Both the position numbers and the translations under genes were made by a program. The notes below the pieces were generated by a model that was not told the DNA's origin, ran no database searches, and saw nothing but the letters and a program-made list of their open reading frames with translations. Positions 878 to 29,895 of a DNA stretch of 64,000 nt are shown piece after piece (position 1 is the stretch's first letter; each line of letters begins with the position of its first letter). Origin of the DNA: a virus. The stretch spans positions 70,561 through 134,560 of IMG/VR virus record IMGVR_UViG_3300030616_000016. One strand, 5' to 3'.

Positions 878-2026
878 TTAGAACGAGTCAGCGCTTTCCT
901 TTTCTCTAACTGCTCTTTTTATTTGACTACTTAGTCTTGCGTGTGATTGCTTTTCTTTTGCTATGTCTTCTAATATTTCTATATCTTTACTGCTTAACAA
1001 CTTTCTTACTCTGATAATATCAAGGTGAGCAGCATATGATAGAGTTGCAAACAATGTTTCCAACTCCTTTTTATCACATTCATAATTCATGACTTTATGG
1101 ATCCACCCTTTATATTGCTTATATTTTTTGGATCCTATTCCACTAATTCTTCTTGCCATTGTTCTACGACTTATGTCAACTCCAAATACAACACCCAATG
1201 CACTTATTCTATTTATACCGCTTAACATAACTTTTGACTTATGTTTATTAAATCTCATTCCTTCTACTGCTACGGCCTTATTTGCGCACTTGAAAATATC
1301 ATTTATCCATTCTTTCCAGAATCTTTTAGATATGTAAGGCATAGAGCTACTTAGTTGTATGTCGTCAGCATATCTTGAATATCTGATCCTTCCATATGGC
1401 CAACCCATGCTTGACATTGTTATATCAAACTTTCTCATACATAGATTTGATATTACAGGACTTGATGGAGCACCTTGTGGTAATCCATTTGTCATTGAAA
1501 CAAGAGGTATTAATGGTATCTTATATTTTCTGCAGCATGTATCTACAGTATGTAATGATATAAGCATCTTTCTAATATGTTTTGCTTTAATAGATGGAAA
1601 GAAGTTCTTAATATCCATACTAATCATTATTCTAGCTCCATCATGTATCGACTGTAATTTGTTAATTGCAGTTTGGAAGCGTCTAGAACGTCTTAGTATT
1701 CTTCTAAAAGATTCTTGTGTTGTAAACAGCGGTTTTGGACTATATGCTAAGCTATGTCCATTTCTGTCATACTTTTGCAATAGCCATGAGACATATCTTT
1801 GTGCCGTTTTTAAGTCTTCGTCTGGCTCATGTAAATGCCTGATGCCACCTGATCTTTTTCTTATCATGTGGTGTGTATATCTTGAGTCTCTATCGTTTGA
1901 GTTTTGTTGTAAGTCTTCAAACAATTGCTGAATTGTAATACCAGATGGCAAGACTAGACTTAGAAAATTGTCAGGAGTTATATCATGAAGTCTCAGTTTC
2001 TTCTTTATCTGATTCTGTTCCATCAT
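878..2026 (-). CDS. Reverse transcriptase, retron/Abi-type (bacterial group-II-related RT)
   Basis: SGGIRHLHEPDEDLKTAQ; MDIKNFFPSI; GLPQGAPSSPVISNL; YSRYADDIQL (YADD catalytic box). The NFFPSI and LPQGAPxSPxxSN pattern is typical of retron-like RTs. The DGR-type I/LGxxxSQ motif is absent. Confidence 0.8.
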   Translation of the reverse strand: MMEQNQIKKKLRLHDITPDNFLSLVLPSGITIQQLFEDLQQNSNDRDSRYTHHMIRKRSGGIRHLHEPDEDLKTAQRYVSWLLQKYDRNGHSLAYSPKPLFTTQESFRRILRRSRRFQTAINKLQSIHDGARIMISMDIKNFFPSIKAKHIRKMLISLHTVDTCCRKYKIPLIPLVSMTNGLPQGAPSSPVISNLCMRKFDITMSSMGWPYGRIRYSRYADDIQLSSSMPYISKRFWKEWINDIFKCANKAVAVEGMRFNKHKSKVMLSGINRISALGVVFGVDISRRTMARRISGIGSKKYKQYKGWIHKVMNYECDKKELETLFATLSYAAHLDIIRVRKLLSSKDIEILEDIAKEKQSHARLSSQIKRAVREKESADSF

Positions 2027-3107
2027 CTCCGCCTTCCGATTCCGTATTGTCAGATATTAATTTGGTTATATCATTGTTTGCTGCAAATTCATATAGTGCT
2101 ATTATTCCTTGCACGCTTTCTTCGCCTATGTAGTAGTATCCACCACGCTTGGTGATTTTACCATCTACAATCATTTGATCTACTAAAAATCTTTCTTCAC
2201 TAAACCCATGATTAAAGATGAATGGATATTTTACTTCGGCTCCCTCCGGCATAGTACCAGACTGTCTAGTCTTATTGATTTTCATGTAATGCATGAAGCC
2301 AATAATTTTCTCTTTCTTCTTTCCATCTTCTTCTACAATGGCAGCTGGAGCTTCGCTTTTGCTACCTCTACGAGTCATCAGCCTTACGTGTGTAAAATGC
2401 TTAACCGCATTTCCTCCCTTAACGAGAGTTAGGTCACCATATCCACCAATATTGGTGTATATTTGACCAATCATTATGATTGTTGTGTTTGTCTTTGCTG
2501 CAGGACCACAAGCAAGTCTTAGGAACTGGCTCATTTTTCTTTGAAGAACACCGATGGTATCATCGTTTAGGCTACGGTTAGTACCGGTTTTACTTTCGAG
2601 TTCTGCGCGTGGAAGCAGACCGCCAATTGAATCAATAACTACGATGTCTACTAAATTCTCTCTCATAATGTCGAGACATTTATCTAGCATGTTCTCCATC
2701 GTATCTTTCTCAATTATAAAGAGCTCATCTGTATTGACTCCTTGTACTTTTAACCACTCTTTATCCAATGCTTCTTCTGCATCAACCCAGCATGCAATAC
2801 CATGGTTTTTCTGAACTTCTGCTACACATCTTGCACATGCAGTGCCTTTAGCTGTCTGTTCTGGTCCGGCGATTGTAACAATTTTACCTCTAGGAAAACC
2901 TCCGCCTAAATAGTCATCCCAGCCTTTAATGCCGGTTGATATTCTACCGTAATCCTCTAGTCCAAAATGTACAATTTGATTTTCATCATCGATGTCTTTG
3001 TTAATAGAAGTCGCTACTCTTTTTAGACGAGCCATCTTCTCTGCTTTTATATCTTGTGGAGATACAATCTTTTCTTCACTAGTATCTTTGCTTTTTCTCT
3101 TAGCCAT
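1983..3107 (-). CDS. recA: RecA-family recombinase
   Basis: Collinear with RecA: GGGFPRGKIVTIAGPEQTAKGT..., CWVDAEEALD, VVIDSIGGLLPRAELE, GGNAVKHFTHVRL. The 3' end overlaps the RT start by 44 nt. Confidence 0.85.
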   Translation of the reverse strand: MAKRKSKDTSEEKIVSPQDIKAEKMARLKRVATSINKDIDDENQIVHFGLEDYGRISTGIKGWDDYLGGGFPRGKIVTIAGPEQTAKGTACARCVAEVQKNHGIACWVDAEEALDKEWLKVQGVNTDELFIIEKDTMENMLDKCLDIMRENLVDIVVIDSIGGLLPRAELESKTGTNRSLNDDTIGVLQRKMSQFLRLACGPAAKTNTTIIMIGQIYTNIGGYGDLTLVKGGNAVKHFTHVRLMTRRGSKSEAPAAIVEEDGKKKEKIIGFMHYMKINKTRQSGTMPEGAEVKYPFIFNHGFSEERFLVDQMIVDGKITKRGGYYYIGEESVQGIIALYEFAANNDITKLISDNTESEGGDDGTESDKEETETS

Positions 3108-7477: not shown

Positions 7478-8476
7478 TTATTCTCCTTGATTGTCTTGTG
7501 CACTTACACGAAACTCAATGTTCTCTGATGCATCCCTAATAGCATTGATCATCTTATTGATGCCTTTGTCCGTGGCTTCCAATACATTATCATCAGCTTC
7601 TGGACAAAGCTTCGTGATTTTGTAGTCACAGAAGTGAGGAGTAAGTACACATGTACGAGAAGGGCTATCGCTATTTAGTATATTTGTTAGAGCTTCGCTA
7701 TCAACTGATGAAGTGTTAAGACCAGTAAAGAAATCATTGTTAAATTTAAGGAAGGCAACAACAGTAAAATTATTTCTTCCACTAGTTTTTCTGCTGATTT
7801 GCTCGCTCTTATATACTTCTGTCAAGATTCTAAATCCCTTGTAATAGCGGACATAGCCTTTATAGAAGTCTTCTGCAGTGATATATGCAAGCACAACGGT
7901 TCTTGGATCAGGATCATTTTTGGAGAAAGACTCACTGATCTCAAGCTCTTTAGTATTAGCACGAACCATGTCTATATATTCTTTTAATTTCTGACGCTTA
8001 AGCCTAGCAATTCTACGCTGTTCAATAATGTTAGAGATACTTCCAATGGCTTCATCAAGTACTCTAACGTTACGAATCGCAGACATAAGATCATATAGAG
8101 AGTTCTTATATATAACCGCAAAGCTCTCCAGTCTTTCAAGAGCAGCTTTAGCAACTGCTTCAGCATAACTTTGGTCGTCTATCATATTATCCATGATAGA
8201 ATCGACCTCTTTTTTTACTAGCTCCTCAGAACTGTGACAATATTCTGGTATAGTCTCTGAAATAGAATAGCCTATTGCATTTGCTAGTTCTGATGGTGTC
8301 ATATTGATTATTCTGCTGATGTTTCTTAATGTATCTCCATTAGCAACTAACCTTGGCAAAGGATTGTTGAAGTTAGGTGTATAGGAGCCTTTAACAATAA
8401 CATCAGGGATCATGATACTTAAATTTTCTGTAAGAAAATTGCGTATCTTCTCTCTTTCTGTTTTAGGTGTAGACAT
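7478..8476 (-). CDS. Hypothetical protein with HTH-like segment
   Basis: DTLRNISRIINMTPSELANAIGYS resembles an XRE-type HTH. Lies immediately downstream of the JAB gene. Confidence 0.5.
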   Translation of the reverse strand: MSTPKTEREKIRNFLTENLSIMIPDVIVKGSYTPNFNNPLPRLVANGDTLRNISRIINMTPSELANAIGYSISETIPEYCHSSEELVKKEVDSIMDNMIDDQSYAEAVAKAALERLESFAVIYKNSLYDLMSAIRNVRVLDEAIGSISNIIEQRRIARLKRQKLKEYIDMVRANTKELEISESFSKNDPDPRTVVLAYITAEDFYKGYVRYYKGFRILTEVYKSEQISRKTSGRNNFTVVAFLKFNNDFFTGLNTSSVDSEALTNILNSDSPSRTCVLTPHFCDYKITKLCPEADDNVLEATDKGINKMINAIRDASENIEFRVSAQDNQGE

Positions 8477-8492
8477 TAATTAACTCCGCTTT

Positions 8493-9485
8493 CTAGACTT
8501 TGTTGAAGTCTTTAATTACATGACTATGACATCTAGGACATTCCAGATTATTTTCATCATTAATTACAAACACATTATTACATGCAGGACATGTTATTCC
8601 TTCCTCTTCATCTGCATCTATAATAAGAGGATCAGTAATATGGTTATCAATTGGATCATCGATAGGATCGCCATATCCAGCCCAATTACGAATGTTTTGA
8701 GAAGTTCTGTGATGTCTGTTACCAAACCTAGGATTGTAATAGCTACCACCTATTGGAAACATAGTTGATTTTCCTTCAACTACTTCATCTTTGTCTTCAT
8801 CATATGAATGTGTAGTCATAGATTTTACAAGCTCATTTATCTCTTCTCTACATTTCTTATATGTTTCTGTGTAATCTGCAGTTACAACATTGAGATCAAT
8901 ATTGTCAATGACAAGCTTGGGGTTTTTCTGAACATATTTGACTAAGATGTTACCAGATTTATTTCCTACAAGCATTACTGCCCATCCATGTTGCTGAAGC
9001 ATCTCATCTGCAGCATCTACATCCTGTCCACTCCAGAATGTAGGCATGTTTACATGAGAATGCCAATGGAAATTCATGCGGCTGTATATTGATTTGCCAA
9101 TGTCTTGTTTAATAGTCAGCATATCTTCTTCTGATATATCATCAACAGATATATCTTTAAACTCCTCAGAGTCTTCAATATATTTGTTGATGTAGTTATC
9201 GATAATATCATGCTCTCCCTTAATGAGAGGAAGCTCAATTCTCTTACATCTGTCTTTATTACACAAACGAAAGTAGCCTGAGCTTGCTACTTGTTTAACG
9301 ATGAATACATTATCAATGATAAGATTACCATTCTTGTCTTGGATGATGGTACCAAGTCCACCACATTCGGTTGAACAAGCATTGATCCATCCTCTGATCT
9401 TTTCTCTTAGGATTGCTGGCATGTATATATTGATGCTTTCTTTAGTTTCTAAAGCATCTTTCTCGGATTCGTTCTTGATTTGCAT
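8493..9485 (-). CDS. JAB/MPN (JAMM) metallopeptidase with C-terminal zinc ribbon
   Basis: Exact JAMM signature HSHVNMPTFWSGQD (H-x-H-x7-S-x2-D) preceded by the conserved Glu in STECGGLG. C-terminal CPACN...CPRCH. RBS AAAGGAAAG lies before the ATG. Confidence 0.8.
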   Translation of the reverse strand: MQIKNESEKDALETKESINIYMPAILREKIRGWINACSTECGGLGTIIQDKNGNLIIDNVFIVKQVASSGYFRLCNKDRCKRIELPLIKGEHDIIDNYINKYIEDSEEFKDISVDDISEEDMLTIKQDIGKSIYSRMNFHWHSHVNMPTFWSGQDVDAADEMLQQHGWAVMLVGNKSGNILVKYVQKNPKLVIDNIDLNVVTADYTETYKKCREEINELVKSMTTHSYDEDKDEVVEGKSTMFPIGGSYYNPRFGNRHHRTSQNIRNWAGYGDPIDDPIDNHITDPLIIDADEEEGITCPACNNVFVINDENNLECPRCHSHVIKDFNKV

Positions 9486-9511
9486 ATCTTTCCTTTCTAT
9501 GCAAGGAGTTA

Positions 9512-10549
9512 TTATGATGCTGATGTATCTACGCGTCCATCAGGCAATAGTTTCAAGTCTTCTTTTTTTGCATATGCTTTCCAGTGGTCAATATCTGCAT
9601 ATGTATCGCCAGAATTACAACTTTCAAGATATTCTTTCAGAATGGCAAATATTACTCCATAACTACCACATTTAAGATACTGAGGAATGGCTCTGCTAAT
9701 ATTCCCCAAGCATGGACCACCATCAACATTAACATGAGGATGTGGATTTGAAGTTTCTTTACCTGGAGGTTCAATAACTGATGTAATGCGTATTCCTGTA
9801 CTATTATATGGAATACTAACAAGATATGTTCCCATATAATAGTACATGTCATTTTCTTTTATCCAGATAGGTGGTGTAAGCCCCTTAATTGAGTCTGGAG
9901 CGAACTCAATGTTAGCATATGCACCTGATTCATATAATTTCATTACTCCAGTAACTGCTTTGTCAATCATCATTTCTTTCTCTTCACCTTCAGGTATGTT
10001 TTCTATATCTTTTAACCTTTCCTTGGCTATTTCAAGGCGTTTCATAAGAGTAAGTTGATGTGTTTGACAAGCTTTCATTTGGTTTTCTGTGAGCCTCAAA
10101 GATGTGAGAAGACTAGTTTTCTCACTATCTACATTACCAAGAAGCTGACGATAAATACATTCCCGTACATCGTTTCTCTTGTTTGCAATGTCTCGTTGAG
10201 ATCTACGACTAGAGCCACTACCTCTTCTAGAAAGAATTATTCGCGCGTCTCTAAAACTTTTAAATGCGTTTGAGATTACTGCGTCAAATATATCTTCTCT
10301 AGAAGCAAGTATTTGTAAACAGTTTGGTGAATGGGTAATAGTTTTTCTTGACTCGTCAACAAAAGGTTCCCATACATTAGATATGTTAGGAATATCTTCA
10401 ATTGGTGTAGGATTTATAATGCAAAGAACCTCTGAAGTAAAATCCTGGAATCTATCACTAATGATAATGGTTTTTGTCAGAGAGATCTCAAATGTTCTGA
10501 AAACAGCAAATAAATCTGAGCTGTTTGCAACTCCCATATTATCAATCAT
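9512..10549 (-). CDS. E2 (UBC-fold)-like ubiquitin-conjugating enzyme with N-terminal coiled-coil extension
   Basis: The C-terminal 110 aa contain NPHPHVNVDGGPCLGNI, which mirrors the UBC HPN...G-x-x-CL active-site motif. It is preceded by a beta-meander-like segment (YYMGTYLVSIPY). Confidence 0.6.
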   Translation of the reverse strand: MIDNMGVANSSDLFAVFRTFEISLTKTIIISDRFQDFTSEVLCIINPTPIEDIPNISNVWEPFVDESRKTITHSPNCLQILASREDIFDAVISNAFKSFRDARIILSRRGSGSSRRSQRDIANKRNDVRECIYRQLLGNVDSEKTSLLTSLRLTENQMKACQTHQLTLMKRLEIAKERLKDIENIPEGEEKEMMIDKAVTGVMKLYESGAYANIEFAPDSIKGLTPPIWIKENDMYYYMGTYLVSIPYNSTGIRITSVIEPPGKETSNPHPHVNVDGGPCLGNISRAIPQYLKCGSYGVIFAILKEYLESCNSGDTYADIDHWKAYAKKEDLKLLPDGRVDTSAS

Positions 10550-10587
10550 ATTTGAAAGCCTTTCTGTGTTTTATGATTAGGGTAAAG

Positions 10588-10634
10588 AAAAGTCAAGTAC
10601 TATAGTAAGTGTTTACTATAATACTTGACTTTTT
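10588..10634 (-). terminator. Long hairpin after the Ubl gene
   Basis: aaaagtcaagtactatagtaa-gtgt-ttactataatacttgactttt gives a stem of about 20 bp. On the minus strand it is followed by TTTTCTTT. Confidence 0.5.
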
Positions 10635-10684
10635 TGTGGCCACATAACTACACAAAAGTGTAGCTACATTTTTAGGGCACTTTA

Positions 10685-10900
10685 CTACTTGCCGCCATCA
10701 ACCTTCTGCTGCAGAACGACGATGTCGCCGTTATCCAGGACTGTGTCGAGGTCAGCAGCGTCGCCGTTTACACGGACTTTACGACTGCCCAGCTCAACTC
10801 CAGCTGTTGCAAGAAGGTTCGCGACGGTTGCGTTTGCCGGAGTGAGGCTGTAAGTCTTAACTTCGCCTTCACCCTGAGCCAGCTGTACACATGTAACCAT
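10685..10900 (-). CDS. Ubiquitin-like beta-grasp protein (ThiS/MoaD-like) ending ...VDGG-K
   Basis: MVTCVQLAQGEGEVKTYSL...VRVNGDAADLDTVLDNGDIVVLQQKVDGGK. A consensus AAGGAG lies 7 nt before this ATG, so the track ORF start at 10936 is probably too long. The di-glycine is followed by one Lys. About 55% GC by hand count. Confidence 0.75.
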   Translation of the reverse strand: MVTCVQLAQGEGEVKTYSLTPANATVANLLATAGVELGSRKVRVNGDAADLDTVLDNGDIVVLQQKVDGGK

Positions 10901-10939
10901 TGCAGAACTCCTTAAATAGGGTTCATGTTTTGTCAACGT

Positions 10940-11608
10940 TCAACTACAAGGCCACACTAGCCTGTAGTCCGCTGACCCTTTTAGAAACATTAATTCATCC
11001 ATAGATAAATTATGTTCATTTGCAACTATAAATCCTATGTTTCCGTAGTCATCGAATCTCATAAGAGATATAAAGTTTTCTATTCCGAACCTATTTTTTG
11101 ATTCGTTTCCACAATAAACGCAATTTGGAAATCCGTATAGCATTTTAGAACCACATAGACCACACTCTTCTTTAGACTCCAGTTTGTAAACTCTTAGTTC
11201 TTTTAGTATTCTTTCATTAATCATAAACGATTGTTGCCCAAGTTTTACCTCTGTACGTTCATGCAAATCTACAAGAGCATCAAATGGAATTCGATTGATC
11301 CAGTAATTTAATGGTCTTAAGCTAGCTGTTCTATTTCTATATATAAGTAAGTTAACTAGTATTTTGTCTGCACATATGGGAGAGCCTTCTTTAAAAATAT
11401 ATCCCATAATTTTATTAGTTCCAATAACATTTCTAGAGCTTCCAATTTCTGGCACTGCTAATGTTAAGCGATTTGGGCTTAGGACTATATCCCATTTCTT
11501 TGATAAATCTTGAGGCTCGTCTGGGTTGTGAGGAGTTATATGCGCCAGCTTTTCTTCTATAGCTCCACGAAATATTGAGCTTTTTCTTCGCTCTAGACAT
11601 TGCGACAT
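10940..11608 (-). CDS. Zinc-ribbon protein (start 11608 or 11407)
   Basis: CGLCGSKMLYGFPNCVYCGN. The ATG at 11608 has a strong AAAGGAGA RBS but lies inside the UvrD 3' end. An alternative ATG at 11407 has no RBS. Confidence 0.5.
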   Translation of the reverse strand: MSQCLERRKSSIFRGAIEEKLAHITPHNPDEPQDLSKKWDIVLSPNRLTLAVPEIGSSRNVIGTNKIMGYIFKEGSPICADKILVNLLIYRNRTASLRPLNYWINRIPFDALVDLHERTEVKLGQQSFMINERILKELRVYKLESKEECGLCGSKMLYGFPNCVYCGNESKNRFGIENFISLMRFDDYGNIGFIVANEHNLSMDELMFLKGSADYRLVWPCS

Positions 11609-13175
11609 ATACAACTCTCCTTTCGGACTCTATTTCGTCTTCTTCTACCATTGTGCATGGATAGTATCCTTCTTCCATCCCGCACATATAAACAATATCA
11701 AACTCAAGTCCCTTTACTCCGTGAACAGTAGCTATAGTCACATCTCCTGCATCGTTATCTGAGTTGCTTGTAAGTTTGATCTTATTTACTAGGTCAATCA
11801 TTGAGTCACAAGAGTCAGACATATAATCTATAATTTCATATAAGGATATCTGATACTTACTCTCGTCCATTTCATCAAGGAGTTTACAAGCATCTTTGAC
11901 TCCTTGCATATCATTGTTTAGGATCTTGTCTATTATCTCTACTATGTCCTCATTATCAACAAGAATTTTAGATTTTTCTTGGCTATTTTCTCTGTTAATA
12001 AATTGGTTAAGAAATCGTTTGCCTAATCCTCTTTTCAAGTATGCAAGAAATTGTGAGGTTCTTTCTATATTGATTCCGTCTTCTTTATTAATAGGATGAA
12101 GCCCACATATAAGATCAATAAGTCTTTTTGTCTTACCTCTTTCTGATAGTGACAGTCCACCTATTCTAGTATATGGTATAGCACGTTGATCAAAATATAT
12201 AGCTACAGTATCTAGTTGTCTATGTGTACGACCTAATATAGCCACTGAATTGCCAGCTTCCATATATCTTTGTATGTCTCGTGCCAAAAACTGATTCTCA
12301 TCAGATTCTGAGTTGAATGGATAGAAATCAACATTAGGTATACTAGCTTCTTCTGCAGTAATTTCACTGCTATAAGTATCTGCATTGCAGGATATTAGTT
12401 TATTACAATATCCAGCAATATGATTGTCAAATCTCCATGTATATGATAATGGAAGTACTTTGGCGCCTGATTCTTTTATGAGCATTTCTGTATTTTCGTA
12501 ACATGCACCACGAAATTGGTACAAGCACTGATTTTGGTCGCCTACTACTGTGAATCCTCTGTTAAAATCATACGTAAGTTCTTTAACCATATTGTATTGA
12601 ACAGTGTTGGTATCTTGCCATTCATCCACAATAATTCCATCGCAACCTACGTCTCTCATATATTCTATGGAGTCGTAAAGAAGATCACTGAAGTCTTTGA
12701 CATGGTTCTTTAGCTTGGTAGTTTTGTATATCTTAGCGAGAGAATCTAAGCTGTCTTGTACTGACAGATTATTTACTTCTACATTATTTTGAAGCTTAAT
12801 CTTTGCAGCTTCAAGTAAAAGCTTATAGATATCACTGTCAGGAGAGTATCCCATTTTCTTTATACAGCTTCTTATCAACTCTGTAGATTCGTTCTGGTCA
12901 ATAATCTCGAATTCTTGTTTGTTATTCTTGAGGAGTTGTAAGCCCAAGCCATGGAATGTTCCAATGAAAACAGCATTGTTCCCAGTTAGTCTACTTGTAA
13001 GTTCTTTTGCTGCCTTATTAGTAAATGTAATAGCAACGAACTTGTAATCTATATCAGCAACACCATAAGCTAATGTGGTTGTTTTGCCACTGCCAGGCGC
13101 AGCCATAACTACGTTTTTGTTGGCTGGGTCTTTCATATGCAAGATAATTGCTTGCTGTTCTTCAGTTGGATTCAT
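11433..13175 (-). CDS. UvrD/Rep/PcrA-family SF1 DNA helicase
   Basis: AAPGSGKTTTL (Walker A), TFHGLG, IIVDEWQDTN, VGDQNQCLYQFRGA, TVHGVKGLEFD, VYVAMSRAKKKL. The likely start is MNPTEEQQ at 13175; the track ORF extends to 13301. Confidence 0.85.
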   Translation of the reverse strand: MNPTEEQQAIILHMKDPANKNVVMAAPGSGKTTTLAYGVADIDYKFVAITFTNKAAKELTSRLTGNNAVFIGTFHGLGLQLLKNNKQEFEIIDQNESTELIRSCIKKMGYSPDSDIYKLLLEAAKIKLQNNVEVNNLSVQDSLDSLAKIYKTTKLKNHVKDFSDLLYDSIEYMRDVGCDGIIVDEWQDTNTVQYNMVKELTYDFNRGFTVVGDQNQCLYQFRGACYENTEMLIKESGAKVLPLSYTWRFDNHIAGYCNKLISCNADTYSSEITAEEASIPNVDFYPFNSESDENQFLARDIQRYMEAGNSVAILGRTHRQLDTVAIYFDQRAIPYTRIGGLSLSERGKTKRLIDLICGLHPINKEDGINIERTSQFLAYLKRGLGKRFLNQFINRENSQEKSKILVDNEDIVEIIDKILNNDMQGVKDACKLLDEMDESKYQISLYEIIDYMSDSCDSMIDLVNKIKLTSNSDNDAGDVTIATVHGVKGLEFDIVYMCGMEEGYYPCTMVEEDEIESERRVVYVAMSRAKKKLNISWSYRRKAGAYNSSQPRRASRFIKEMGYSPKPKSLNISSARNWKL

Positions 13176-13179
13176 ATTA

Positions 13180-13389
13180 TTAGTCTGTTGTAGTGTTAAG
13201 GTGGTATTCAATCTCATCAGTAATGGATTTGGTGTCTTTATGCAGCGTTTGTTCTCCCTTAATACTGAGTTTGTACTTATTTCTTTTCTTTGGATCTGCA
13301 TATTTTGTTATAGAGATGCTTATGCGTTCATCTTTCTTTTGTGCTTGTTCTTGCGGCTGTTGTGTTTGTTCTGTTACATCACCTGGCAT
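13180..13389 (-). CDS. Small Lys/Gln-rich hypothetical protein
   Basis: MPGDVTEQTQQPQEQAQKK... with GGAG before the ATG at 13389. Confidence 0.4.
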   Translation of the reverse strand: MPGDVTEQTQQPQEQAQKKDERISISITKYADPKKRNKYKLSIKGEQTLHKDTKSITDEIEYHLNTTTD

Positions 13390-14087
13390 TTTAATATATC
13401 TCCTAATTTGTCTAGGTCTGATAAAAGATCCCATTGTTTAAACATATGAAGGTCATTTATTAGTATTTTTTTACCACAGTAATAACATTCTGTAAAGTAT
13501 TCTGTGTGTGGACCAATTAATTTGTAGCGCAATATACCATCATTAAATAAATTATATGAAGCACATGAAGGACATAGGTATGGAATTAGTGCTAACATTG
13601 TTGATAGTATATTACCACGTTTTATACGAGCTGGATTTGATTTGTATATTGTTGTAAAACCAACTACTGAATTTAATAATGATCGAGACATAGCCCCAGA
13701 TGAATTTCTTCTTAATTCTTCTAGTATTGCTGTTTTTGAGTTTATTACTATGCGTTGACATGCAATACTAATACGTTGAACAGAATCATAATGCATATAA
13801 TCTGGATATATAGGTGGTATCTTTATCTCTGACATAGTTCCAATCATTTGTTCAATGATAGGTGTAACTGACCAGTTATACAAATCTCTTCCTACTAAAG
13901 AGCATCTTGTTATAGCACATGGAGGAACATATACATGTTTTTGATAACCGGGCGACAAATTATTAGTCATAGCTTTTGTAATGTCAGCATATGATACAGT
14001 AGGCACTGTCCATTTAGGGAGTATAGTGTTTTTAAGTTCTAGTGTGGAACAGATTGCTTTATTAAGACAGTTTATACATGGATGCAT
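13374..14087 (-). CDS. Cys-rich protein (multiple CxxC pairs)
   Basis: MHPCINCLNKAIC..., CPSCASYN...CYYCGKK. Lies between the E1 and Ubl genes. Confidence 0.5.
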   Translation of the reverse strand: MHPCINCLNKAICSTLELKNTILPKWTVPTVSYADITKAMTNNLSPGYQKHVYVPPCAITRCSLVGRDLYNWSVTPIIEQMIGTMSEIKIPPIYPDYMHYDSVQRISIACQRIVINSKTAILEELRRNSSGAMSRSLLNSVVGFTTIYKSNPARIKRGNILSTMLALIPYLCPSCASYNLFNDGILRYKLIGPHTEYFTECYYCGKKILINDLHMFKQWDLLSDLDKLGDILKCQVM

Positions 14088-14107
14088 TGCTCTTTTCTCA
14101 CAGAATA

Positions 14108-14575
14108 TTATTTAGATGTCTCGTATATTGCTTTGATGTCTATGTTTGATGAGTCTTCCAATAGTAATTTTACTAGTCCTATTTTATTCTTGCTGTTAAA
14201 TGAAGACATGATTGCTTTAAGTATATTATCATTGTATGCGCCACAAAATTGGCATATAATCGAGCTTCCCAGACACATACAATTTGAACATCTTTCTGTA
14301 AGTTTAGATGTAATACTTATATAATCGCGTGATATTGTTACTGGCAAGCAACCACAACTATCTATTGCCAAAATATCATAAGTATCGTTGTCTATGTATC
14401 CAACTATTATTTTTTTTGCACGCATAAATTCTTTATATATAAGGAGATTATAAGCATTATGTTCTACTTCAAATGGTATTAATATACTATCACTGTCTTG
14501 TAAGGGTTTTGTAGACCCTTCAGAAAGTGTAAGCCCAGTGAATAATATACGATCAAAACGACACGATTTACTCAT
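14108..14575 (-). CDS. Cys-rich protein, translationally coupled to E1
   Basis: CSNCMCLGSSIICQFCGAYN and SCGCLP. Its ATG overlaps the E1 stop (ATGA). Confidence 0.5.
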   Translation of the reverse strand: MSKSCRFDRILFTGLTLSEGSTKPLQDSDSILIPFEVEHNAYNLLIYKEFMRAKKIIVGYIDNDTYDILAIDSCGCLPVTISRDYISITSKLTERCSNCMCLGSSIICQFCGAYNDNILKAIMSSFNSKNKIGLVKLLLEDSSNIDIKAIYETSK

Positions 14576-15309
14576 GGTCTTTTATCCTTAAAGATATCCC
14601 ATGTCTTGAAATTAATATCTATTCCAAATGGAATTGTTTCTTCTGTTCCATTTGCAATATGATAAATACATGAGGATATCCAGCTTGCTGTCCACATTAC
14701 TGGAAATATAATGCTCTTTTCTGTACACTTGATATCAGGCATGTCTTCATCATTATCAAGATTGTTTTCCTCGAACAGCTGAACTTCATCTGGCATGTAA
14801 GGAAGTACTGCGTATGCTTCGCATTGAGTTGCTCCAATTCTTGAGTCTATAAACATGGAAATACGAGCCATATTTTGACAACTATATTCAAACAGGAGTT
14901 GTCTTGCCTTCATGTTATCGACGGCAGAAATAATAATGTCAGCTTTTCTAGCGTATTTGTCAACATCGTCTACGCTTTCAAGTCTGTCTTTATGAAATTC
15001 CCACTCCCAGTTGGGCTTTGAATATCCGCTTATAATCTTTTCAAGTTCAGCTACTTTTAGGGCTCCAGTTTGCCGCCAATTATAAATTTGGTTTGCCTGA
15101 TTATGGACTTCAATTGAATCAAAGTCTACAATAGTACATTTGGTGATACCCATTTTTGCCATAGCAACTGCAGCAAATGAACCTATGCTTCCAGCTCCAA
15201 GCATAAATACATTAAGCTTCATCAGCTTATCAATGTCAACTAGATCAAAGTGACCTTTATAAATTTCTTCATTCTCATTGAATACAAATTCTTCTTCCTG
15301 GTTAGACAT
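14572..15309 (-). CDS. E1-like adenylyltransferase (ThiF/MoeB/HesA family)
   Basis: LNVFMLGAGSIGSFAAVAMAKMGITKCTIVDFDSIEVHNQANQ (Rossmann GxGxxG and D-x-D...N-x-x-Q). AVDNMKARQLL. The ATG at 15309 follows AAAGGA; the track ORF starts at a GTG at 15336. Confidence 0.8.
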   Translation of the reverse strand: MSNQEEEFVFNENEEIYKGHFDLVDIDKLMKLNVFMLGAGSIGSFAAVAMAKMGITKCTIVDFDSIEVHNQANQIYNWRQTGALKVAELEKIISGYSKPNWEWEFHKDRLESVDDVDKYARKADIIISAVDNMKARQLLFEYSCQNMARISMFIDSRIGATQCEAYAVLPYMPDEVQLFEENNLDNDEDMPDIKCTEKSIIFPVMWTASWISSCIYHIANGTEETIPFGIDINFKTWDIFKDKRP

Positions 15310-15328
15310 TGAGTAATTCCTTTCTGGT

Positions 15329-16042
15329 CTACTCACCGAATATTGATTGCATCGAAAAGTATGTATAACATACTAGCTCATATTCCTGAATCCATTCTTC
15401 TCTTTTTGTTCCGCTTTTATCTCTTATGATGTAGCTCGGATGATAAAGACAGATTATTGGAATATCATTATTGTTATTGTTATAGTAAAATGTTTCTCCA
15501 ACTAAATCTCCCATTTTAGTTGTAGTATTTACATCTTTTATTAATGCTATAGCTGATTGTTTGCCAAGGCAAACAATCAACCATGGATCCAGTATTTCTA
15601 ATTCTTTGTGAAGAAATGGAATACATTCTTCAACACAGTCTGTGGGTGGAGGACAAGTTTTCTCACCTTGCCTGAATGGTTTGCATCTGGCTATGTTTGT
15701 TAAGTAGCATTCTGATGCTGGCAATTCGGCGGCTTCTGTCATCTCATTGAGTTCTTGTCCAGCTGGACCACAAAATGGGATGCCTTGGCTATCTTCCTGG
15801 GCCCCAGGAGATTCGCCGATAAAAACTATGTTGTATCGGTAGCTTCCTCTGCTAAAAACAGGACTAGATGCTATATTTCTTAGTCTGCATTTTGTGCAGT
15901 CTAGTACGTCCTGTTCTAAGTCTTGGAGCTGACTTTCTTTACTTATATTTTGAGTATCTCCAGACATTTTGCGTAAATCCACTAGGGGTTTTGAGTCTAA
16001 TGCGCTCTTTGTCAATACTGACAATCTCTGAGCCTGGTACAA
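15329..16042 (-). CDS. Uracil-DNA glycosylase, family 4 (start uncertain)
   Basis: CTKCRL..., IVFIGESPGAQEDSQGIPFCGPAGQELN, LYHPSYIIR. These are the family-4 UDG motifs. Confidence 0.8.
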   Translation of the reverse strand: MYQAQRLSVLTKSALDSKPLVDLRKMSGDTQNISKESQLQDLEQDVLDCTKCRLRNIASSPVFSRGSYRYNIVFIGESPGAQEDSQGIPFCGPAGQELNEMTEAAELPASECYLTNIARCKPFRQGEKTCPPPTDCVEECIPFLHKELEILDPWLIVCLGKQSAIALIKDVNTTTKMGDLVGETFYYNNNNNDIPIICLYHPSYIIRDKSGTKREEWIQEYELVCYTYFSMQSIFGE

Positions 16043-16903: not shown

Positions 16904-18661
16904 TCATGAATGCTTCCAAGCGCTGTATGAGATATCAATTATCTCTGTATCTAATATTTCGTTGGCCACTTGTTGTAAAACAAGTCTTGCAGGTAAGAAA
17001 GGTTTTAGCCTATTAAATGGCAGGCCTAAATTAACCTCAATAATTCCGTTGGAATATTTATATTCAGCTGACTGAATCACATGATAAACCTTAGGAGTTA
17101 CAAGGTTTTTAACTGAATATACTATTTTGTTTATTGTTTCCTTTTTGTTTGACGACATTATAGTATTGATTCTTTTAATTTCATCCAGTATAACACTTGA
17201 ACTTTCAGTGTTTCTTCTTACTGGTGGCAATTCTCTAAATGGTATTATTTCTGCAGGATATTGTCTATCGAATCCTAAGATGGTACTATTTAGAGATTTA
17301 GATACCTTCTTCCAGTTAGATAGGCTAAAGCCTGCAGGTGAACCATAGACTGTATAGAATAGATATACATCTCCGTTCTTAATCTTTCTAGACAGGCTCA
17401 TGATATGATCTTGCCATAACAGTATTGCTTCCATTTTTTGCTGGCTAAGAGGCATGACATAGTTTTCTTCAAAGCTTCTGAATTTGATTACACCTACTAC
17501 CTGAGTGCTAGATATATCAAACTTGGATAGTAGCTTTTTGTAGTCTATATCATTCTCTTCTGCGAATTTGTGTGCTCTTTCGTCACTCTTGCGTACAACT
17601 TCTACATCAATATTATGACCAAGTTCTTCCATAGACCATCGTTCTGACATAACGCCATAGTGTTTGTCAGAATCGACTACGTCGATAATATTGAACGACT
17701 TCTTGGTTTCTGTGATTCTAGCACCCCTGCCAATACACTGCATATACAGAACTTTAGAGGCTGTAGGCCTACCAAGAACTATTGTATCTATATCTGGTAC
17801 ATCTACACCCTCTGTATATATCTCACAGTTTATAAGGGTCTGAATTTTACCTTTGTAAAATGCCTCATTAATTTCTCTTCGTTCTTTTTTGGTATTCTCT
17901 TGAGATATCATTACAGGATTAAACTCTTCGAGTTCTTCAAGTAATGATTTGGCGTGAGTATTATCTACTGCGAATATAAGGGTCTTTCCTAAATATTCTG
18001 CGTCTCTCATGCCTTGTAGAATAGCCTTATTTCTTGCTTCGCTATTGACTTGCTTTAATGATTCTCTGGTAAATCTACCATTGACTTTCTTTAAGTCTAG
18101 TTTAATGCCAGTTCTTACTATATTGTATGAAGGTTTTGCGAGCCAGCCTTTTTCAACCATGTCATAGAATGTGCGTTGATAAGAAATAGAATCGAATCCT
18201 AGGTCTTTACCGTCTAATCTGGTTGGAGTTGCTGTAAGTCCTAGGATACGATTCCATTTAATTCTTTGAATTATGCCATCATCTCCTGATATGCTTGGCA
18301 TAGGGAAATGATGTGCTTCGTCACATACTATAGTATCGACTTCAGGAAGTTCATTATGTAATTCTGATGTAGATAGTATACTGGCGATTATGATATCTCC
18401 GCCAGCATCTTTCTCATCGGCATTCCATATTGTCACTTTAGAACCAAGAGACTCGAATGCACCATAGGCTTGAGATATTAGCTCATTTCTGTGTGCAAGC
18501 CAAAGAGTTTTTCTCTTCTTTGCATGAATCCAAGATGCCGCTGTAAATGTCTTACCTGTTCCAGTTGGAAGACATAACAGTGATTTCTTTCCAGGCTTGA
18601 GCTTCTTACTCATAGCTTTATGTGCTTCTTTTTGATAATCTCTTAGTTGTTTCTTAGCCAA
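16904..18661 (-). CDS. SF2 DEAD/DEAH-box helicase (type III restriction Res-like core) with C-terminal extension
   Basis: LPTGTGKTFTAA (motif I), CDEAHH (II), GLTATP (III), TEGVDVPDIDTIVLGRPTASKVLYMQCIGRGAR (V/VI). Confidence 0.85.
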   Translation of the reverse strand: MAKKQLRDYQKEAHKAMSKKLKPGKKSLLCLPTGTGKTFTAASWIHAKKRKTLWLAHRNELISQAYGAFESLGSKVTIWNADEKDAGGDIIIASILSTSELHNELPEVDTIVCDEAHHFPMPSISGDDGIIQRIKWNRILGLTATPTRLDGKDLGFDSISYQRTFYDMVEKGWLAKPSYNIVRTGIKLDLKKVNGRFTRESLKQVNSEARNKAILQGMRDAEYLGKTLIFAVDNTHAKSLLEELEEFNPVMISQENTKKERREINEAFYKGKIQTLINCEIYTEGVDVPDIDTIVLGRPTASKVLYMQCIGRGARITETKKSFNIIDVVDSDKHYGVMSERWSMEELGHNIDVEVVRKSDERAHKFAEENDIDYKKLLSKFDISSTQVVGVIKFRSFEENYVMPLSQQKMEAILLWQDHIMSLSRKIKNGDVYLFYTVYGSPAGFSLSNWKKVSKSLNSTILGFDRQYPAEIIPFRELPPVRRNTESSSVILDEIKRINTIMSSNKKETINKIVYSVKNLVTPKVYHVIQSAEYKYSNGIIEVNLGLPFNRLKPFLPARLVLQQVANEILDTEIIDISYSAWKHS

Positions 18662-21865: not shown

Positions 21866-23164
21866 GTGACATTACCCCACGCCTAAAGGCGGGGGCTTCC
21901 TAATTCATCGAAAATTGCGTTCCATACTGGCTACGTCTTACATCTTCTCCAAAGGCTTTAGGTTCCCCTTGCCCAGGGGTACAAAATGCAAAATTCAAAA
22001 TATTACTAGATGCAAGGGCATCTCTATCGTGTTTGGCACCACAAGTGCAAGTCCAATATCTGTCACTTAGCTTAAGATTATTATTTATAGCGCCGCACTG
22101 GTTACACATCTTGCTGGATGGTTCAAATCTTCCTATAGTCAAAACATGCTTTCCATACCAACCTGCCTTATACTCAAGAAAGGTACGAAAAGTATACCAT
22201 CCAACATCAGAGATAGCCTTGGCCAAACAATGATTCTTCACCATTCCAGAAACGTTTAAATCCTCAAGACACACTGCTTGGTTCTCGTCAATGAGCCTTT
22301 TGGACAATTTATGCAAAAAATCTTTACGTTGATTAGAAATCTTCTCATGTATCAACGCTACCTTCCTACGAGCCTTGTTTCTATTTGAAGAACCTTTCTT
22401 CTTCTTTGATAATTGTTTTTGCTTTCTTGCCAATCTTCTTTCAAGTTTCTTTAGGTATCTTGGATTATCTATTTTCTCGCCTGTTGATAGTGTTGCAAAA
22501 TGTTTTAATCCAACGTCAACACCTACACTATTATCTCGTTCAGGATTACATTTGATAGGTAATTCTTCTCCATTGTCAACCAAAATAGAAGCAAAGTATT
22601 TCCCAGAAGGAGCCATGAATATAGTTACAGTTTTAATATTGCCTTCAAATTGTCTATGGAATTTGCATTTGATGCCATCACGGAATTTCATTACATATAG
22701 CCTATTATTATCAAAATCCACATTACTTCCTTGTGGAAATTGACAAGATTGCTTTTTGAATTTCTTCTTAAATTGAGGATATCTTGCCTGTTTCTTAAAA
22801 AACCGCCGGAAAGCATTGTCAAGGTTTCTAAAGGCCATTTGCAAAGATTGACTATTAACTTCCTTCAGCCAACCATGCTCAGATTTCATATGTTTCAATT
22901 GCTTTATCAAATCAAAACAGGAAGGAGATTTCCCCGTTTTTTGATAAGACTCTGTTTTCTTTTGGAGTCCCAAATTGTATATGAACCGTACACAACCAAA
23001 ATGCTTCACAAGAAGCTCCTGTTGTTTTTTGTTGGGGTATATTTTGTATTTATATGCTCGTATCATTATATTTATAGTATAGCACAGGTTTCTGTAAATG
23101 TCAAGAGAAAAACGCATTCTTATATCCCCATGGCTAAAGCCAGGGGTCTTACGAATGCACCTTG
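21866..23164 (-). mobile_element. IS200/IS605-family element carrying tnpB only (IS1341-like), 1.3 kb
   Basis: The ends are defined by comparison with copies at 33637-33883 and 62734-62781. The left end (LE) starts CAAGGTGCATTCGTAAGACCCCTGGCTTTAGCCATGGGG immediately after TTAT. The right end (RE) finishes CCCCCGCCTTTAGGCGTGGGGTAATGTCAC. Both ends have subterminal imperfect hairpins. No tnpA is present. Confidence 0.8.
21900..23066 (-). CDS. tnpB: TnpB (OrfB) RNA-guided-nuclease-family protein
   Basis: MIRAYKYKIYPNKKQQELL, GVDVGLKHFATLSTGEKIDNP (RuvC-I Asp), VCLEDLNV (RuvC-II Glu), CNQCG...CTCG (zinc finger), HDRDALASSNI (RuvC-III Asp). Confidence 0.9.
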   Translation of the reverse strand: MIRAYKYKIYPNKKQQELLVKHFGCVRFIYNLGLQKKTESYQKTGKSPSCFDLIKQLKHMKSEHGWLKEVNSQSLQMAFRNLDNAFRRFFKKQARYPQFKKKFKKQSCQFPQGSNVDFDNNRLYVMKFRDGIKCKFHRQFEGNIKTVTIFMAPSGKYFASILVDNGEELPIKCNPERDNSVGVDVGLKHFATLSTGEKIDNPRYLKKLERRLARKQKQLSKKKKGSSNRNKARRKVALIHEKISNQRKDFLHKLSKRLIDENQAVCLEDLNVSGMVKNHCLAKAISDVGWYTFRTFLEYKAGWYGKHVLTIGRFEPSSKMCNQCGAINNNLKLSDRYWTCTCGAKHDRDALASSNILNFAFCTPGQGEPKAFGEDVRRSQYGTQFSMN

Positions 23165-28239: not shown

Positions 28240-29895
28240 TTATTTTTTAATACTGATAGAGAACATTTCTTTATCCTCTGTAAAGTATACACTGGTACCA
28301 TCAGTGTATAGTGGCATTGATGAGTCTATCGGCGGATTAGTAATAATGCGTTTTTGATTATCTTTAGAGATCTCAATCTTTTGATCGCTAAATACATCAA
28401 TGCAAACTCCATTATTAAGAACAATGAAATTGATATTATCAACATCGCGCTCTTCTTTGTCTAGCAGAATACCTTTATTTTCTTTGCTGCATAGTTTGAA
28501 TCGGAATCTATAATATTTACCAGATTCTTCTGCTATGCATACTAGAATTCCTCTGCTATGTTTTGCATTGATTATTCTAAGTCCATGGAGTTCCTCAATA
28601 GGACCTAGAAAACTACCAGAATCTTCTAATGGCGCATATGCCCAACATTTGTCTAGGAAGTTGCTAATTACTACTCCACTAAACATTTGATTCATAGTAC
28701 CAAGATTTTGGGATGGATTCGAGCATGCCGCGCTCTTATTCCCCATATTTTTTGCATATACCTCATATACTGAGGCGCCGTTTCTGCAAAATATACTACC
28801 ATTGTATATCATGGCTTTGTCTGCGGCAAATTTACCTGGTATATCCGTTTCTATTTCTACACAGCCATTATCAATTATGCCTAACACAGGGTCAGGAGAT
28901 AGATTGCATAGAAATGCCTTTTTATTGGATATATCCTTAAATATGGATTTACCACAGTATATTGCCTTATCCGTAAATGTATAGAAAATACCATTTAGGA
29001 ATTGTATTGATTTAATCGGCTCATTGTACTTATACATTGATTTAATGTCAAAATTTGCTGTGCTTCTTATAGTCTTTTGAACCATAGCTATATTAATTGT
29101 AGCGTCAGGTTTAGGTGGAGCGCTGCGTTTATTCTCAATGAATATTGACTTAAACCACTCCATATGAGCTTTAGGAATAACTGAGAAGTCTTGACATACG
29201 GATGGAATGGTAACCTTACTATCAAATACGGATATACCATCATCCATTCGCTTAGTAAATTCTCTTGGTTTATAGTCTGGGTGTTTACCCTTATAAGGAT
29301 GGATACCAACATAAAGCTGAAATGCTATTACTGCAAACGAGAACCAATCGCTTAGTTCTGTGAACTTTTTGGCTAAGCGGTCTCTTATTGAATCCATAAT
29401 AGCATTAGCTGGAAATGACTTTGTCTGATAACTGTCAACGTCAATAAAGTAAGGTACTTTATGACCTTTGTCTATCAGAAAGTTCATTTCATTCATATCT
29501 ACTATCAGGCATTGTTTAGAATGAATGTGCTCGACCGTGTCTTGTATATTGCGCACAATTTCTAATACTTGATTAGGAGATATATTATTATCTTTTCTGT
29601 ACTGCTTAGTAAAGAGCTTGCATAGAGCACTTGTCTCTTTAATATACTTCATTGTATATCCGATGACATTGCTTGTCTTTTTATCGCAAACAATATCTTC
29701 CGGTTTGATAACATTGCCGGCTGTTATATAGCCAAGCTCTTCAATCTTTCTTAATGGTATCATATGCTTGATATCATTATAAATCTTGAAGGCAATATTG
29801 TCTTTTTTATATACAGAACCTTGACCACCAGATGCAATAAAATCATTGTCTTTCAGGTCAAATGAAGCCTTTGTTCTATTTACAATGACTCTCAT
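28240..29895 (-). CDS. Ser/Thr protein kinase with large C-terminal domain
   Basis: IASGGQGSVYKKDNIAFKIY (Gly-rich loop and Lys). HSKQCLIVDMNEMNFLI (catalytic-loop D..N). FIDVDSY (DFG-equivalent). Confidence 0.7.
   Translation of the reverse strand: MRVIVNRTKASFDLKDNDFIASGGQGSVYKKDNIAFKIYNDIKHMIPLRKIEELGYITAGNVIKPEDIVCDKKTSNVIGYTMKYIKETSALCKLFTKQYRKDNNISPNQVLEIVRNIQDTVEHIHSKQCLIVDMNEMNFLIDKGHKVPYFIDVDSYQTKSFPANAIMDSIRDRLAKKFTELSDWFSFAVIAFQLYVGIHPYKGKHPDYKPREFTKRMDDGISVFDSKVTIPSVCQDFSVIPKAHMEWFKSIFIENKRSAPPKPDATINIAMVQKTIRSTANFDIKSMYKYNEPIKSIQFLNGIFYTFTDKAIYCGKSIFKDISNKKAFLCNLSPDPVLGIIDNGCVEIETDIPGKFAADKAMIYNGSIFCRNGASVYEVYAKNMGNKSAACSNPSQNLGTMNQMFSGVVISNFLDKCWAYAPLEDSGSFLGPIEELHGLRIINAKHSRGILVCIAEESGKYYRFRFKLCSKENKGILLDKEERDVDNINFIVLNNGVCIDVFSDQKIEISKDNQKRIITNPPIDSSMPLYTDGTSVYFTEDKEMFSISIKK

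Follow-up and report, generated by a model that had tools for sequence, protein, structure and literature searches.

A predicted ubiquitin-like conjugation cascade on a jumbo-phage-like genome and its unnamed family in uncultivated phages and prophage-like segments

So far, the ubiquitin-like conjugation systems characterised in bacteria, Bil and type II CBASS, serve to defend the host against phages. Archaeal SAMPylation is not known to involve a conjugating enzyme (E2). In BilABCD, the genes of the ubiquitin-like protein (Ubl), the E2, the JAB protease, and the activating enzyme (E1) stand in the order Ubl-E2-JAB-E1 (10.1101/2023.09.04.556158). Operon types 6c and 6d encode E2-like proteins without the classical His, and type 6e an inactive E2-like domain without the Cys (Iyer et al. 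2006, PMC1779556); the Rpn11-like protease of Caldiarchaeum processes a ubiquitin precursor (PMC6043591). No description of a phage-encoded E1-E2-Ubl-JAB cascade was found in the literature, in which an earlier mention may still exist. Here we describe a gene block with these four putative components in a viral DNA window of 64,000 nucleotides (the whole stretch analysed, positions 70,561 to 134,560 of the IMG/VR record IMGVR_UViG_3300030616_000016). Positions refer to the window unless another contig is named.

The block probably encodes a complete and catalytically intact Ubl-conjugation cascade, carried on a jumbo-phage-like genome and drawn from a large unnamed family of phage and prophage modules with the order Ubl-E2-JAB-E1. 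An earlier, sequence-only reading of the window had assigned the four parts as a ThiF/MoeB-type E1 with a GAGSIGS motif, a protein with a UBC-type active site, a 71-amino acid beta-grasp protein ending in VDGG-K, and a JAB peptidase with an exact H-x-H-x7-S-x2-D motif, and each assignment was borne out by the results below. All four open reading frames (ORFs) were present on the minus strand with intact catalytic motifs (Table 1), and the gene calls of the source contig agreed with the 155-, 71-, 345-, and 330-amino acid products. The window E2 had no match in Pfam, PADLOC, PHROGs, or NCBIfam, which contain no model for it, and none of 66 E2 members matched a PHROG. Since library scans with single sequences were only partly informative, the assignments of the E2 and the Ubl needed family-level evidence.

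The E2 contains HPHVNVDGGPCLGN and consists of a clade-specific N-terminal region (residues 1–115), a coiled coil (about 118–208), and a UBC-fold domain (about 209–330). Its putative active site is formed by HPH at residues 270–272, seven further residues, and Cys280. H270, P271, H272, C280, and G282 were invariant in 66 relatives at 14–57% identity, and HPH and the Cys were also invariant in a set of 48 sequences. When a profile of the C-terminal domain built from these 48 sequences was compared with the whole PDB, almost only UBC E2s were retrieved (UBE2L3 at E 0.0016, then UBE2N, UBE2A, and UBE2D); the HMMER alignment spanned helix 1 and the sheet and set 'HPHvssdgspC' opposite 'HPNIDEKGQVC' of UBE2L3. 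The AlphaFold2 model of the domain, also based on 48 sequences, reached a pLDDT of 93.4 and a pTM of 0.86 and has the N-terminal helix, antiparallel sheet, and C-terminal helices of the UBC alpha/beta fold. A model of the full-length protein from three sequences was unusable (pLDDT 52). In the Foldseek search with the domain model, UbcH5b came first (probability 0.96), and the matches also included non-catalytic RWD and UEV domains. The protein is therefore best regarded as a predicted member of the UBC superfamily, termed divergent because the fold scores are modest. Human UBE2W, an active E2 that modifies protein N-termini, has VHPHVYSNGHIC, an HPHV...C variant with the same spacing as in the phage E2; by analogy, the change from Asn to His in the motif should not be disabling in principle.

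The single Ubl sequence gave a weak match to ThiS (E 0.0025; 18.7 bits against the Pfam cut-off of 22.5). The family profile matched Pyrococcus furiosus SAMP2 at 1.3e-8 over positions 2–69 of 70, ending at the GG, followed by MoaD, SAMP1, and ThiS, and it retrieved no natural ubiquitin or SUMO chain from the PDB at E<=10; the designed protein 6l0l 'Hydra-1ubq' appeared at E 0.085. By its sequence, the Ubl is thus a SAMP/MoaD-like beta-grasp modifier, and both this protein and the E2 domain fell into the expected folds rather than unrelated ones. The terminal Gly was invariant in the family alignment. In the clade of the window, the three Ubls end in VDGGK, VDGGKIS, and VAGGTAGALAA, so that Gly-Gly is kept and the tail varies, and in nearly all operons that contain a JAB gene, 0–5 variable residues follow the GG. 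Trimming of such a tail would match the biochemistry shown for BilC and BilA (PMC10557695). A side observation was the presence in some viral relatives of tandem di-Ubls of 136–138 amino acids, each half ending in GG, at L017 982–1392, L021 5418–5828, L028 11179–11589, L023 2103–2516, and L006 8677–9093. They resemble a mini polyubiquitin or an ISG15-type precursor.

The E1 carries GAGSIGS and scored 77.2 bits with Pfam ThiF (E 1.4e-21; cut-off 28.1). Comparison with the homologue on contig L001 places its likely ATG start at 15309. The protein is 245–254 amino acids long (207–338 across the family), with one adenylation domain and no inserted Cys domain. It matched the PADLOC CBASS 'E1-E2' models (5.9e-18), and its family profile retrieved UBA5 (6.5e-19) and ThiF (3.6e-16) from the PDB, then UBA6, MccB, Uba1, and Cap2 (about 1e-9). 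The best NCBIfam matches were ThiF and MoeB, all scores being far under the equivalog cut-offs; for the UbaA model, which has a cut-off of 450 bits, the score was 37. An alignment of 22 E1 sequences showed no variation in the GxGxxGS loop or at S53, D71, D73, N79, K94, D140, R145, R166, and C204, and MAFFT aligned C204 to Cys184 of ThiF, in the crossover-loop position. The ThiF sequence of this alignment gave 62.5 bits over residues 23–140 in hmmsearch, the same score and range as PDB chain 1zud_1.

The JAB protein contains HSHVNMPTFWSGQD, which fits H-x-H-x7-S-x2-D exactly. As a single sequence, it remained under the Pfam cut-off (Prok-JAB, E 0.0018; 18.5 against 25 bits). In the alignment of 22 members, the zinc-site residues were conserved throughout, E40, H142, H144, S152, and D155 being invariant, and the family profile matched Rpn11 (1.9e-8), followed by the Rpn11-like protein of Caldiarchaeum, PfJAMM1, CSN5, and AMSH. 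Matches of its C-terminal zinc ribbon in the library scan were weak.

Relatives of the cascade were searched for in several ways. The word-indexed protein search, which yielded 2–5 proteins per query, provided two close E2 homologues (57% and 45% identity). They are encoded on L001, a contig of 41 kb, and L003, one of 14 kb, which proved syntenic with the window in the order (UDG)-ThiF-x-x-x-UvrD-ZnR-Ubl-E2-JAB-x (ZnR, zinc-ribbon protein). A search of IMG/VR for relatives with a three-sequence alignment returned none. When 1.84 billion representatives were searched exhaustively with an E2 profile, 1490 proteins reached E<=1e-3 and 204 of them E<=1e-10, and almost all matches covered the half of the query with the coiled coil and the UBC domain. 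We also used a degenerate DNA pattern for HPH[VI]x3GxPCxGN; since it holds about 39 bits, fewer than one chance match was expected. With this pattern, 25 loci were located in IMG/VR, on viral contigs 12–180 kb long, and 72 in a set of one genome per species. The latter were all in metagenome-assembled genomes (MAGs), among them Myxococcota, candidate-phyla-radiation bacteria, Planctomycetota, and Gammaproteobacteria.

In the viral loci, scanned with hidden Markov models (HMMs) from the window proteins, the E2, JAB, and E1 genes were adjacent and co-directional in nearly all cases, with a Ubl gene shortly before E2 or after E1. The usual order in both viral and MAG relatives was Ubl-E2-JAB-E1 on one strand. 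In the 61 loci whose sequence continued for 2.5 kb or more beyond E2, same-strand partners 3' of E2 were JAB in 48, E1 in 49, and both in 42. In a BLAST comparison of the genes at 1–32000, the widely recurring ones were E1 (21 loci), E2 (23), JAB (13), and Ubl (5, with more found by HMM); the other genes of this part were common to at most three loci. The four families co-occur on one strand in ~100 independent loci, which excludes a chance neighbourhood. The cascade is one of a large unnamed family, whose members lie in some hundred uncultivated DNA segments of phage or prophage-like type. Of the outcomes that the sequence-only reading had named as refuting, none was observed: the four genes co-vary across related genomes, and the homologues keep HPH, the Cys, and GG. 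Its count of five extra genes between E1 and Ubl was right, and its description of a layout that is not compact applies to the window. In the family, compact Ubl-E2-JAB-E1 is the norm, and the split arrangement is a peculiarity of the clade of the window; split layouts with E1 upstream are those of the window, L001, L003, and L023.

In Myxococcota MAGs, the module is present repeatedly in one genome, in some cases 3–4 times, which suggests several related prophages or mobile elements. Examples are L036, L052, and L082 on the chromosome OZ223209.1 and the bin-1730 contigs L031, L046, L097, and L098. Among GenBank phages, neither blastn with the 7-kb block nor tblastn with the window E2, the family consensus, and a second member gave a match (the low-complexity filter may affect the consensus query); the E2 family seems to be absent from cultured phages.

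A related arrangement was observed in crAss-like and Fipvunavirus phages, where a 'metalloprotease' with a JAB motif (HSHNNMQTFFSGTD) is encoded directly upstream of a ThiF-like E1, near primase/toprim and UDG genes. The pair lies at 4658–6663 of L004 (uncultured crAss-like phage cr111_1) and at 4686–6618 of L005 (Flavobacterium phage FpV4). No E2 or Ubl was detected beside the ThiF/JAB pair in the crAss-like phages and FpV4. A protein of ~420 amino acids encoded upstream of JAB in these phages was considered as an E2 counterpart and rejected, as it had no significant HMM match. The label 'thiamine biosynthesis protein' on the E1 of crAss-like and Flavobacterium phages is probably misleading.

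Table 1. Features of the gene block, in transcription order, and other annotated genes of the window
Feature	Position	Strand	Evidence and remarks
UDG family protein	15329..15967	-	Pfam UDG 6.3e-30; adjoins E1 on its 5' side; neighbourhood conserved, but no part of the cascade
E1, minimal single-domain ThiF/MoeB-type, about 245 aa (amino acids)	14572..15309	-	Pfam ThiF; ORF opens also at GTG 15336
155-aa Cys-rich protein (CSNCMC...CQFCG), intervening	14108..14575	-	ORF
237-aa protein with N-terminal CxxC and C-terminal CxxC...CxxCG zinc ribbon, intervening	13374..14087	-	ORF
Small basic protein, about 73-84 aa, intervening	13180..13434	-	ORF
UvrD/Rep-type superfamily 1 helicase, intervening	11433..13217	-	Pfam UvrD-helicase 7.8e-37, UvrD_C 5.8e-37; phrog_1967 5.7e-92; start inferred from a 594-aa gene call
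155-aa zinc-ribbon protein (CGLCG...CVYCG), intervening	10940..11407	-	Gene call on source contig
Ubl, 71-aa SAMP2/MoaD/ThiS-like beta-grasp modifier (predicted), ending VDGG-K	10685..10900	-	Family profile
Intergenic hairpins, terminator or attenuator candidate	10550..10684	-	RNA fold
E2 (predicted), 345 aa	9512..10549	-	Profile and predicted fold
JAB/JAMM (MPN+) metalloprotease with C-terminal CPxC...CPxC zinc ribbon	8493..9485	-	Motif and profile
332-aa protein directly downstream of JAB	7478..8476	-	ORF; homologues in L001 (2e-63) and L003 (4e-16), same position
Reverse transcriptase	878-2026		RVT_1 7.6e-20; adjoins RecA-like gene
RecA-like gene	1983-3107		Adjoins reverse transcriptase; same pair in syntenic L001
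DEAD-type helicase	16904-18661		
TnpB/IS605 OrfB-type gene	21900-23117		phrog_506 1.5e-133; Pfam OrfB_IS605 and Cas12f1-like TNB domain
Protein-kinase-like gene	28240-29895		Score just under Pfam cut-off
RNA polymerase beta subunit-like fragment	33888-35558		Rpb2 domain 6
Second transposase-like gene	43010-44020		phrog_4285
Nicotinate phosphoribosyltransferase (NAPRTase)	44039-45196		

The genes of the block share one strand, as do nearly all long ORFs of the window, whose GC content is 36%. The library scans gave no family match for the 155-amino acid Cys-rich, the 237-amino acid, and the 332-amino acid proteins. L001 has no counterpart of the Cys-rich protein; in L003, a Cys motif at 621–1148 resembles it by eye, and BLAST gave nothing at E<=1e-4. 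The 237-amino acid protein has a homologue in L001 (BLAST 2e-23) and a syntenic 220-amino acid protein with similar CxxC motifs in L003. Syntenic counterparts of visibly similar sequence accompany the small basic protein in L001 (73 amino acids) and L003 (81 amino acids), and syntenic ORFs with a similar CxxC...CxxCG motif correspond to the 155-amino acid zinc-ribbon protein in both contigs. The 332-amino acid protein, kept only in the two syntenic relatives, is possibly a clade-specific partner or target. CxxC...CxxC(G) zinc-ribbon motifs recur in the two 155-amino acid proteins, the 237-amino acid protein, and the JAB C-terminus (about 8493–8600), and L003 has three more tandem small paralogues of this kind at 2050–2941; such proteins could be adaptors or targets of the tagging system. 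A UDG gene beside or near a ThiF-like gene was also present in L001, L023, a crAss-like phage, and FpV4.

The Ubl gene forms a GC island, with a GC content of 0.55 and a third-codon-position GC content (GC3) of 0.56, compared with a GC3 of 0.23–0.30 in E1, E2, and JAB and a window GC content of 0.36. The same excess was found in L001 (9591–9809) and L003 (5111–5341) and, more weakly, in other clades. As it is kept in diverged relatives of 30–48% GC, it is maintained rather than due to recent import; it may reflect codon usage adapted to strong expression. Immediately 3' of the Ubl stop codon, the transcript could fold into a 12-bp hairpin and then a perfect 21-bp hairpin with UUUUCUUU behind it; the RNA fold of 10550–10690 on the minus strand had a minimum free energy of -43.7 kcal/mol (z -6.6). 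Terminator-like hairpins with a stem and a U-tract also occur 3' of the Ubl gene in L001 (9806–9950, z -5.8) and L003 (5338–5430), with unrelated sequences. These structures point to a terminator or attenuator in the gap between the Ubl and E2 genes. There may thus be at least two transcription units, with the Ubl made in excess of the enzymes. The co-directional block of the sequence-only reading therefore stands as regards the strand; as a single operon it probably does not, because of the terminator-like hairpin 3' of the Ubl gene.

The results above show the folds, the motifs, their conservation, and the linkage of the genes; the chemistry of the following route is inferred throughout, as is the direction in which the Ubl is passed on. 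The Ubl would be made as a GG-K precursor, probably in excess over the enzymes, which is proposed because of its GC-rich, atypical codon usage and the hairpin behind its gene. The JAMM protease would remove the residue or residues after Gly-Gly, and the minimal ThiF-like E1 would adenylate the exposed Gly, probably as a homodimer like ThiF, MoeB, and UBA5, and take the Ubl as a thioester on Cys204, at the position of ThiF Cys184. The Ubl would then pass to Cys280 of the E2, whose HPH-x7-C site has the same form as that of human UBE2W, and the E2 would attach it to its target proteins at an amino group. With no E3 in evidence, the variable N-terminal region and the coiled coil of the E2 would select the targets. 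The JAMM protease could also reverse the modification. This predicted logic of processing, activation, conjugation, and deconjugation has good support from the conserved active sites and the linkage of the genes. With low confidence, we suggest that the phage would use the tag in infection on its own or host proteins, most likely replication, recombination, or repair factors or host defence proteins; these targets are suggested because the module lies repeatedly within replication/recombination blocks, not in defence islands.

Several observations weigh against a complete and active cascade of this kind. The Arg of the E1 NLxRQ motif is replaced by Asn or Pro-Asn across the whole family, and the Arg of the N-terminal YxRQ motif is Gly in the clade of the window, which makes the adenylation competence of the E1 uncertain. 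No E3 and no target was identified. In some Myxococcota loci, an E1 gene is lacking within 6 kb, and a variant with the order E2-E1-Ubl has no detected JAB and a Ubl ending in the conserved ERPQGS. As this ending is not exactly GG, a test of co-variation between the tail and JAB was uninformative in the JAB-less operons. The association with replication and recombination genes is a recurring neighbourhood, not the outcome of a statistical test, and no capsid, terminase, tail, or other structural gene was found among the window ORFs scanned, which cover part of the window. Loci of the E2-E1-Ubl variant are L033, L035, L040, L041, L051, L055, L096, and L101, mostly on candidate-phyla-radiation or unclassified MAG contigs.

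The carrier of the cascade appears to be a phage, as its relatives lie on IMG/VR viral contigs and fold matches were obtained to uncharacterised proteins of uncultured phages. The gene content and the length of the source contig (231.6 kb) fit a jumbo phage. RNA polymerase beta fragments, nicotinate phosphoribosyltransferase, and kinase-like genes are typical jumbo-phage accessory genes. No tRNA gene was found in the window. The neighbours of the module in the window are the UDG, UvrD, DEAD-type helicase, and RecA genes; in the Myxococcales MAG locus L031 (2979–4436), a phage-type recombination pair follows directly after E1, consisting of a Rad52-like annealing protein with a PD-(D/E)XK nuclease. 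The sequence-only reading had placed the set among core replication genes of what looked like a large phage genome; the replication neighbours were found as described, and the phage identity rests on context and on the IMG/VR relatives.

The same context bears on the alternative that ranks next, namely that a Bil-type antiviral system is carried by phages and prophages and tags structural proteins of competing phages, for superinfection exclusion or to the benefit of a lysogen. Prophages often carry defence genes, and many copies of the module are present in the chromosomes of bacterial MAGs, sometimes several per genome. The parts list and the gene order match BilA-B-C-D (10.1101/2023.09.04.556158), and the tandem di-Ubls of some relatives are like the ISG15-like BilA. 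However, the E1, E2, and Ubl found here differ from those that define Bil (PMC10557695), the neighbours are replication and recombination genes rather than defence genes, and PADLOC gave just the CBASS E1-E2 and JAB matches and none for the E2. In addition, the window genome, with its split RNA polymerase beta-subunit-like gene, looks like that of a large lytic-type phage. We therefore consider this alternative unlikely, and the genomic context together with the differing Bil features leads us to favour, with modest confidence, use of the tag by the phage for its own purposes over a Bil-like defence.

Another alternative, which we regard as improbable, is a sulfur-carrier pathway comparable to those of ThiS/MoaD, CysO, or TtuB, in which E1, Ubl, and JAB would together supply a thiocarboxylate for nucleotide, cofactor, or DNA/tRNA thiolation, the E2-like protein being a relay or scaffold. 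SAMP2, MoaD, and ThiS are the nearest matches of the Ubl, the E1 has its best NCBIfam matches in ThiF and MoeB, and crAss-like records label the E1 as 'thiamine biosynthesis protein'. However, SAMP2 is itself a protein modifier, the E1 scores are far under the equivalog cut-offs, and in nearly all loci the linked genes include one for a UBC-fold protein whose HPH...Cys site is invariant. Operons of JAB, E1, and ThiS/MoaD have been listed for sulfur chemistry (Iyer et al. 2006, PMC1779556), but no rhodanese, cysteine desulfurase, ThiG/MoaE, or other sulfur-acceptor protein was recognised among the scanned linked genes, most neighbours being only BLAST-clustered. Less probable still is the reading that the genes are mere neighbours, with the E2-like protein an inactive RWD/UEV-type scaffold and JAB and E1 acting on something other than the 71-amino acid protein: the five intervening genes, the hairpin between Ubl and E2, and the non-catalytic RWD and UEV domains among the fold matches would agree with this, whereas HPH is invariant in 66 sequences, as is the Cys, which is absent from RWD and UEV domains (PMC1779556), the Ubls keep their terminal GG, and same-strand linkage of the four families holds in ~100 loci.

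If the block does encode a Ubl-conjugation cascade used by the phage, ubiquitin-like conjugation would be a viral offensive or regulatory tool in prokaryotes and not host defence alone. Taken further, and only tentatively, thousands of uncultivated tailed phages might encode ubiquitin-type tagging, used in infection on replication, recombination, and repair factors or to disable host immunity, with an E2 and an Rpn11-like JAB among the most eukaryote-like outside archaea and eukaryotes. A phage-encoded cascade so widespread would show that prokaryotic viruses wield the same chemistry as their hosts' defences, with targets to be sought among host defence, replisome, and virion proteins. The eukaryote-like E2, with its classical HPN-type site, and the Rpn11-like JAB would bear on the origin of the canonical E2, and the family is one more data point for the question of how eukaryotic E2 and Rpn11-type enzymes arose. 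With an E1 of ~220 amino acids, a classical-site E2, a SAMP-like tag, and a JAMM protease, it would also be a minimal system for mechanistic work.

Comparison with the known systems showed likenesses to each of them. The TAPI protein of phages lambda and T1 and the JAB-NlpC/P60 protein TAPK are likewise encoded by phages and pair a JAB peptidase with a ThiS/MoaD-like Ubl that ends in Gly; they are found in a tail gene cluster without E1 and E2 and are thought to act only by proteolytic processing (PMC1779556). Type II CBASS Cap2/Cap3 shares the E1, E2, and JAB chemistry, and the E1 matched both the PADLOC 'E1-E2' models and Cap2. However, E2 and E1 are fused in Cap2, which conjugates the CD-NTase itself, without a free Ubl, whereas E1 and E2 are here encoded by separate genes 4 kb apart; no CD-NTase match was obtained in the Pfam and PADLOC scans of the ten proteins of the cluster (7478–16042), where no effector gene is present.

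SAMPylation (SAMP1/2, UbaA, and HvJAMM1/PfJAMM1) resembles the family in its small single-domain ThiF-like E1 and its Ubl ending in GG, with SAMP2 the best match of the Ubl and PfJAMM1 among the matches of JAB. It differs in being independent of E2, whereas a UBC-fold E2 is linked in nearly all loci here, and in belonging to an archaeal cell rather than a virus. The HP[N/H]-x7-Cys site and the UBC fold are shared with the operon of Caldiarchaeum subterraneum and with eukaryotic E2s, and Rpn11 and the Rpn11-like protease of Caldiarchaeum are the best matches of JAB. These systems have a RING E3, true ubiquitin, and large E1s; a RING E3 and true ubiquitin were not recognised here. Unlike its Caldiarchaeum and eukaryotic counterparts, the E1 has neither a Cys domain nor a ubiquitin-fold domain, and the E2 has a long N-terminal extension and a coiled coil.

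The likeness to Bil and Cap2/Cap3 had been pointed out in the sequence-only reading and is apt as an analogy. With BilABCD of types I and II, the family shares the set of Ubl, E2, JAB, and E1 genes in the canonical order, the conserved Gly of the Ubl with a short non-conserved tail for trimming by JAB, and the lack of an E3, and some relatives also share tandem beta-grasp Ubls. However, the Bil E1 is a multidomain IAD-AAD-CYS protein (PMC10557695, PMC11601596), whereas the E1 found here is a single domain of ~250 amino acids with the Cys at the position of ThiF Cys184. The Bil E2 has the Cys followed by a conserved His and no classical His (PMC10557695), in contrast to the invariant HPH seven residues before the Cys. 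The Bil Ubl is nearer to ubiquitin and SUMO than to ThiS/MoaD (PMC10557695), whereas the Ubl of this family, compared by sequence only, is SAMP2/MoaD-like. Bil operons lie in bacterial defence islands, and the module described here lies in phage replication/recombination blocks and is split by five genes in the window. Since the three defining features of Bil, in the E1, the E2, and the Ubl, are replaced by others, the family is, as judged from its sequences, a lineage separate from Bil.

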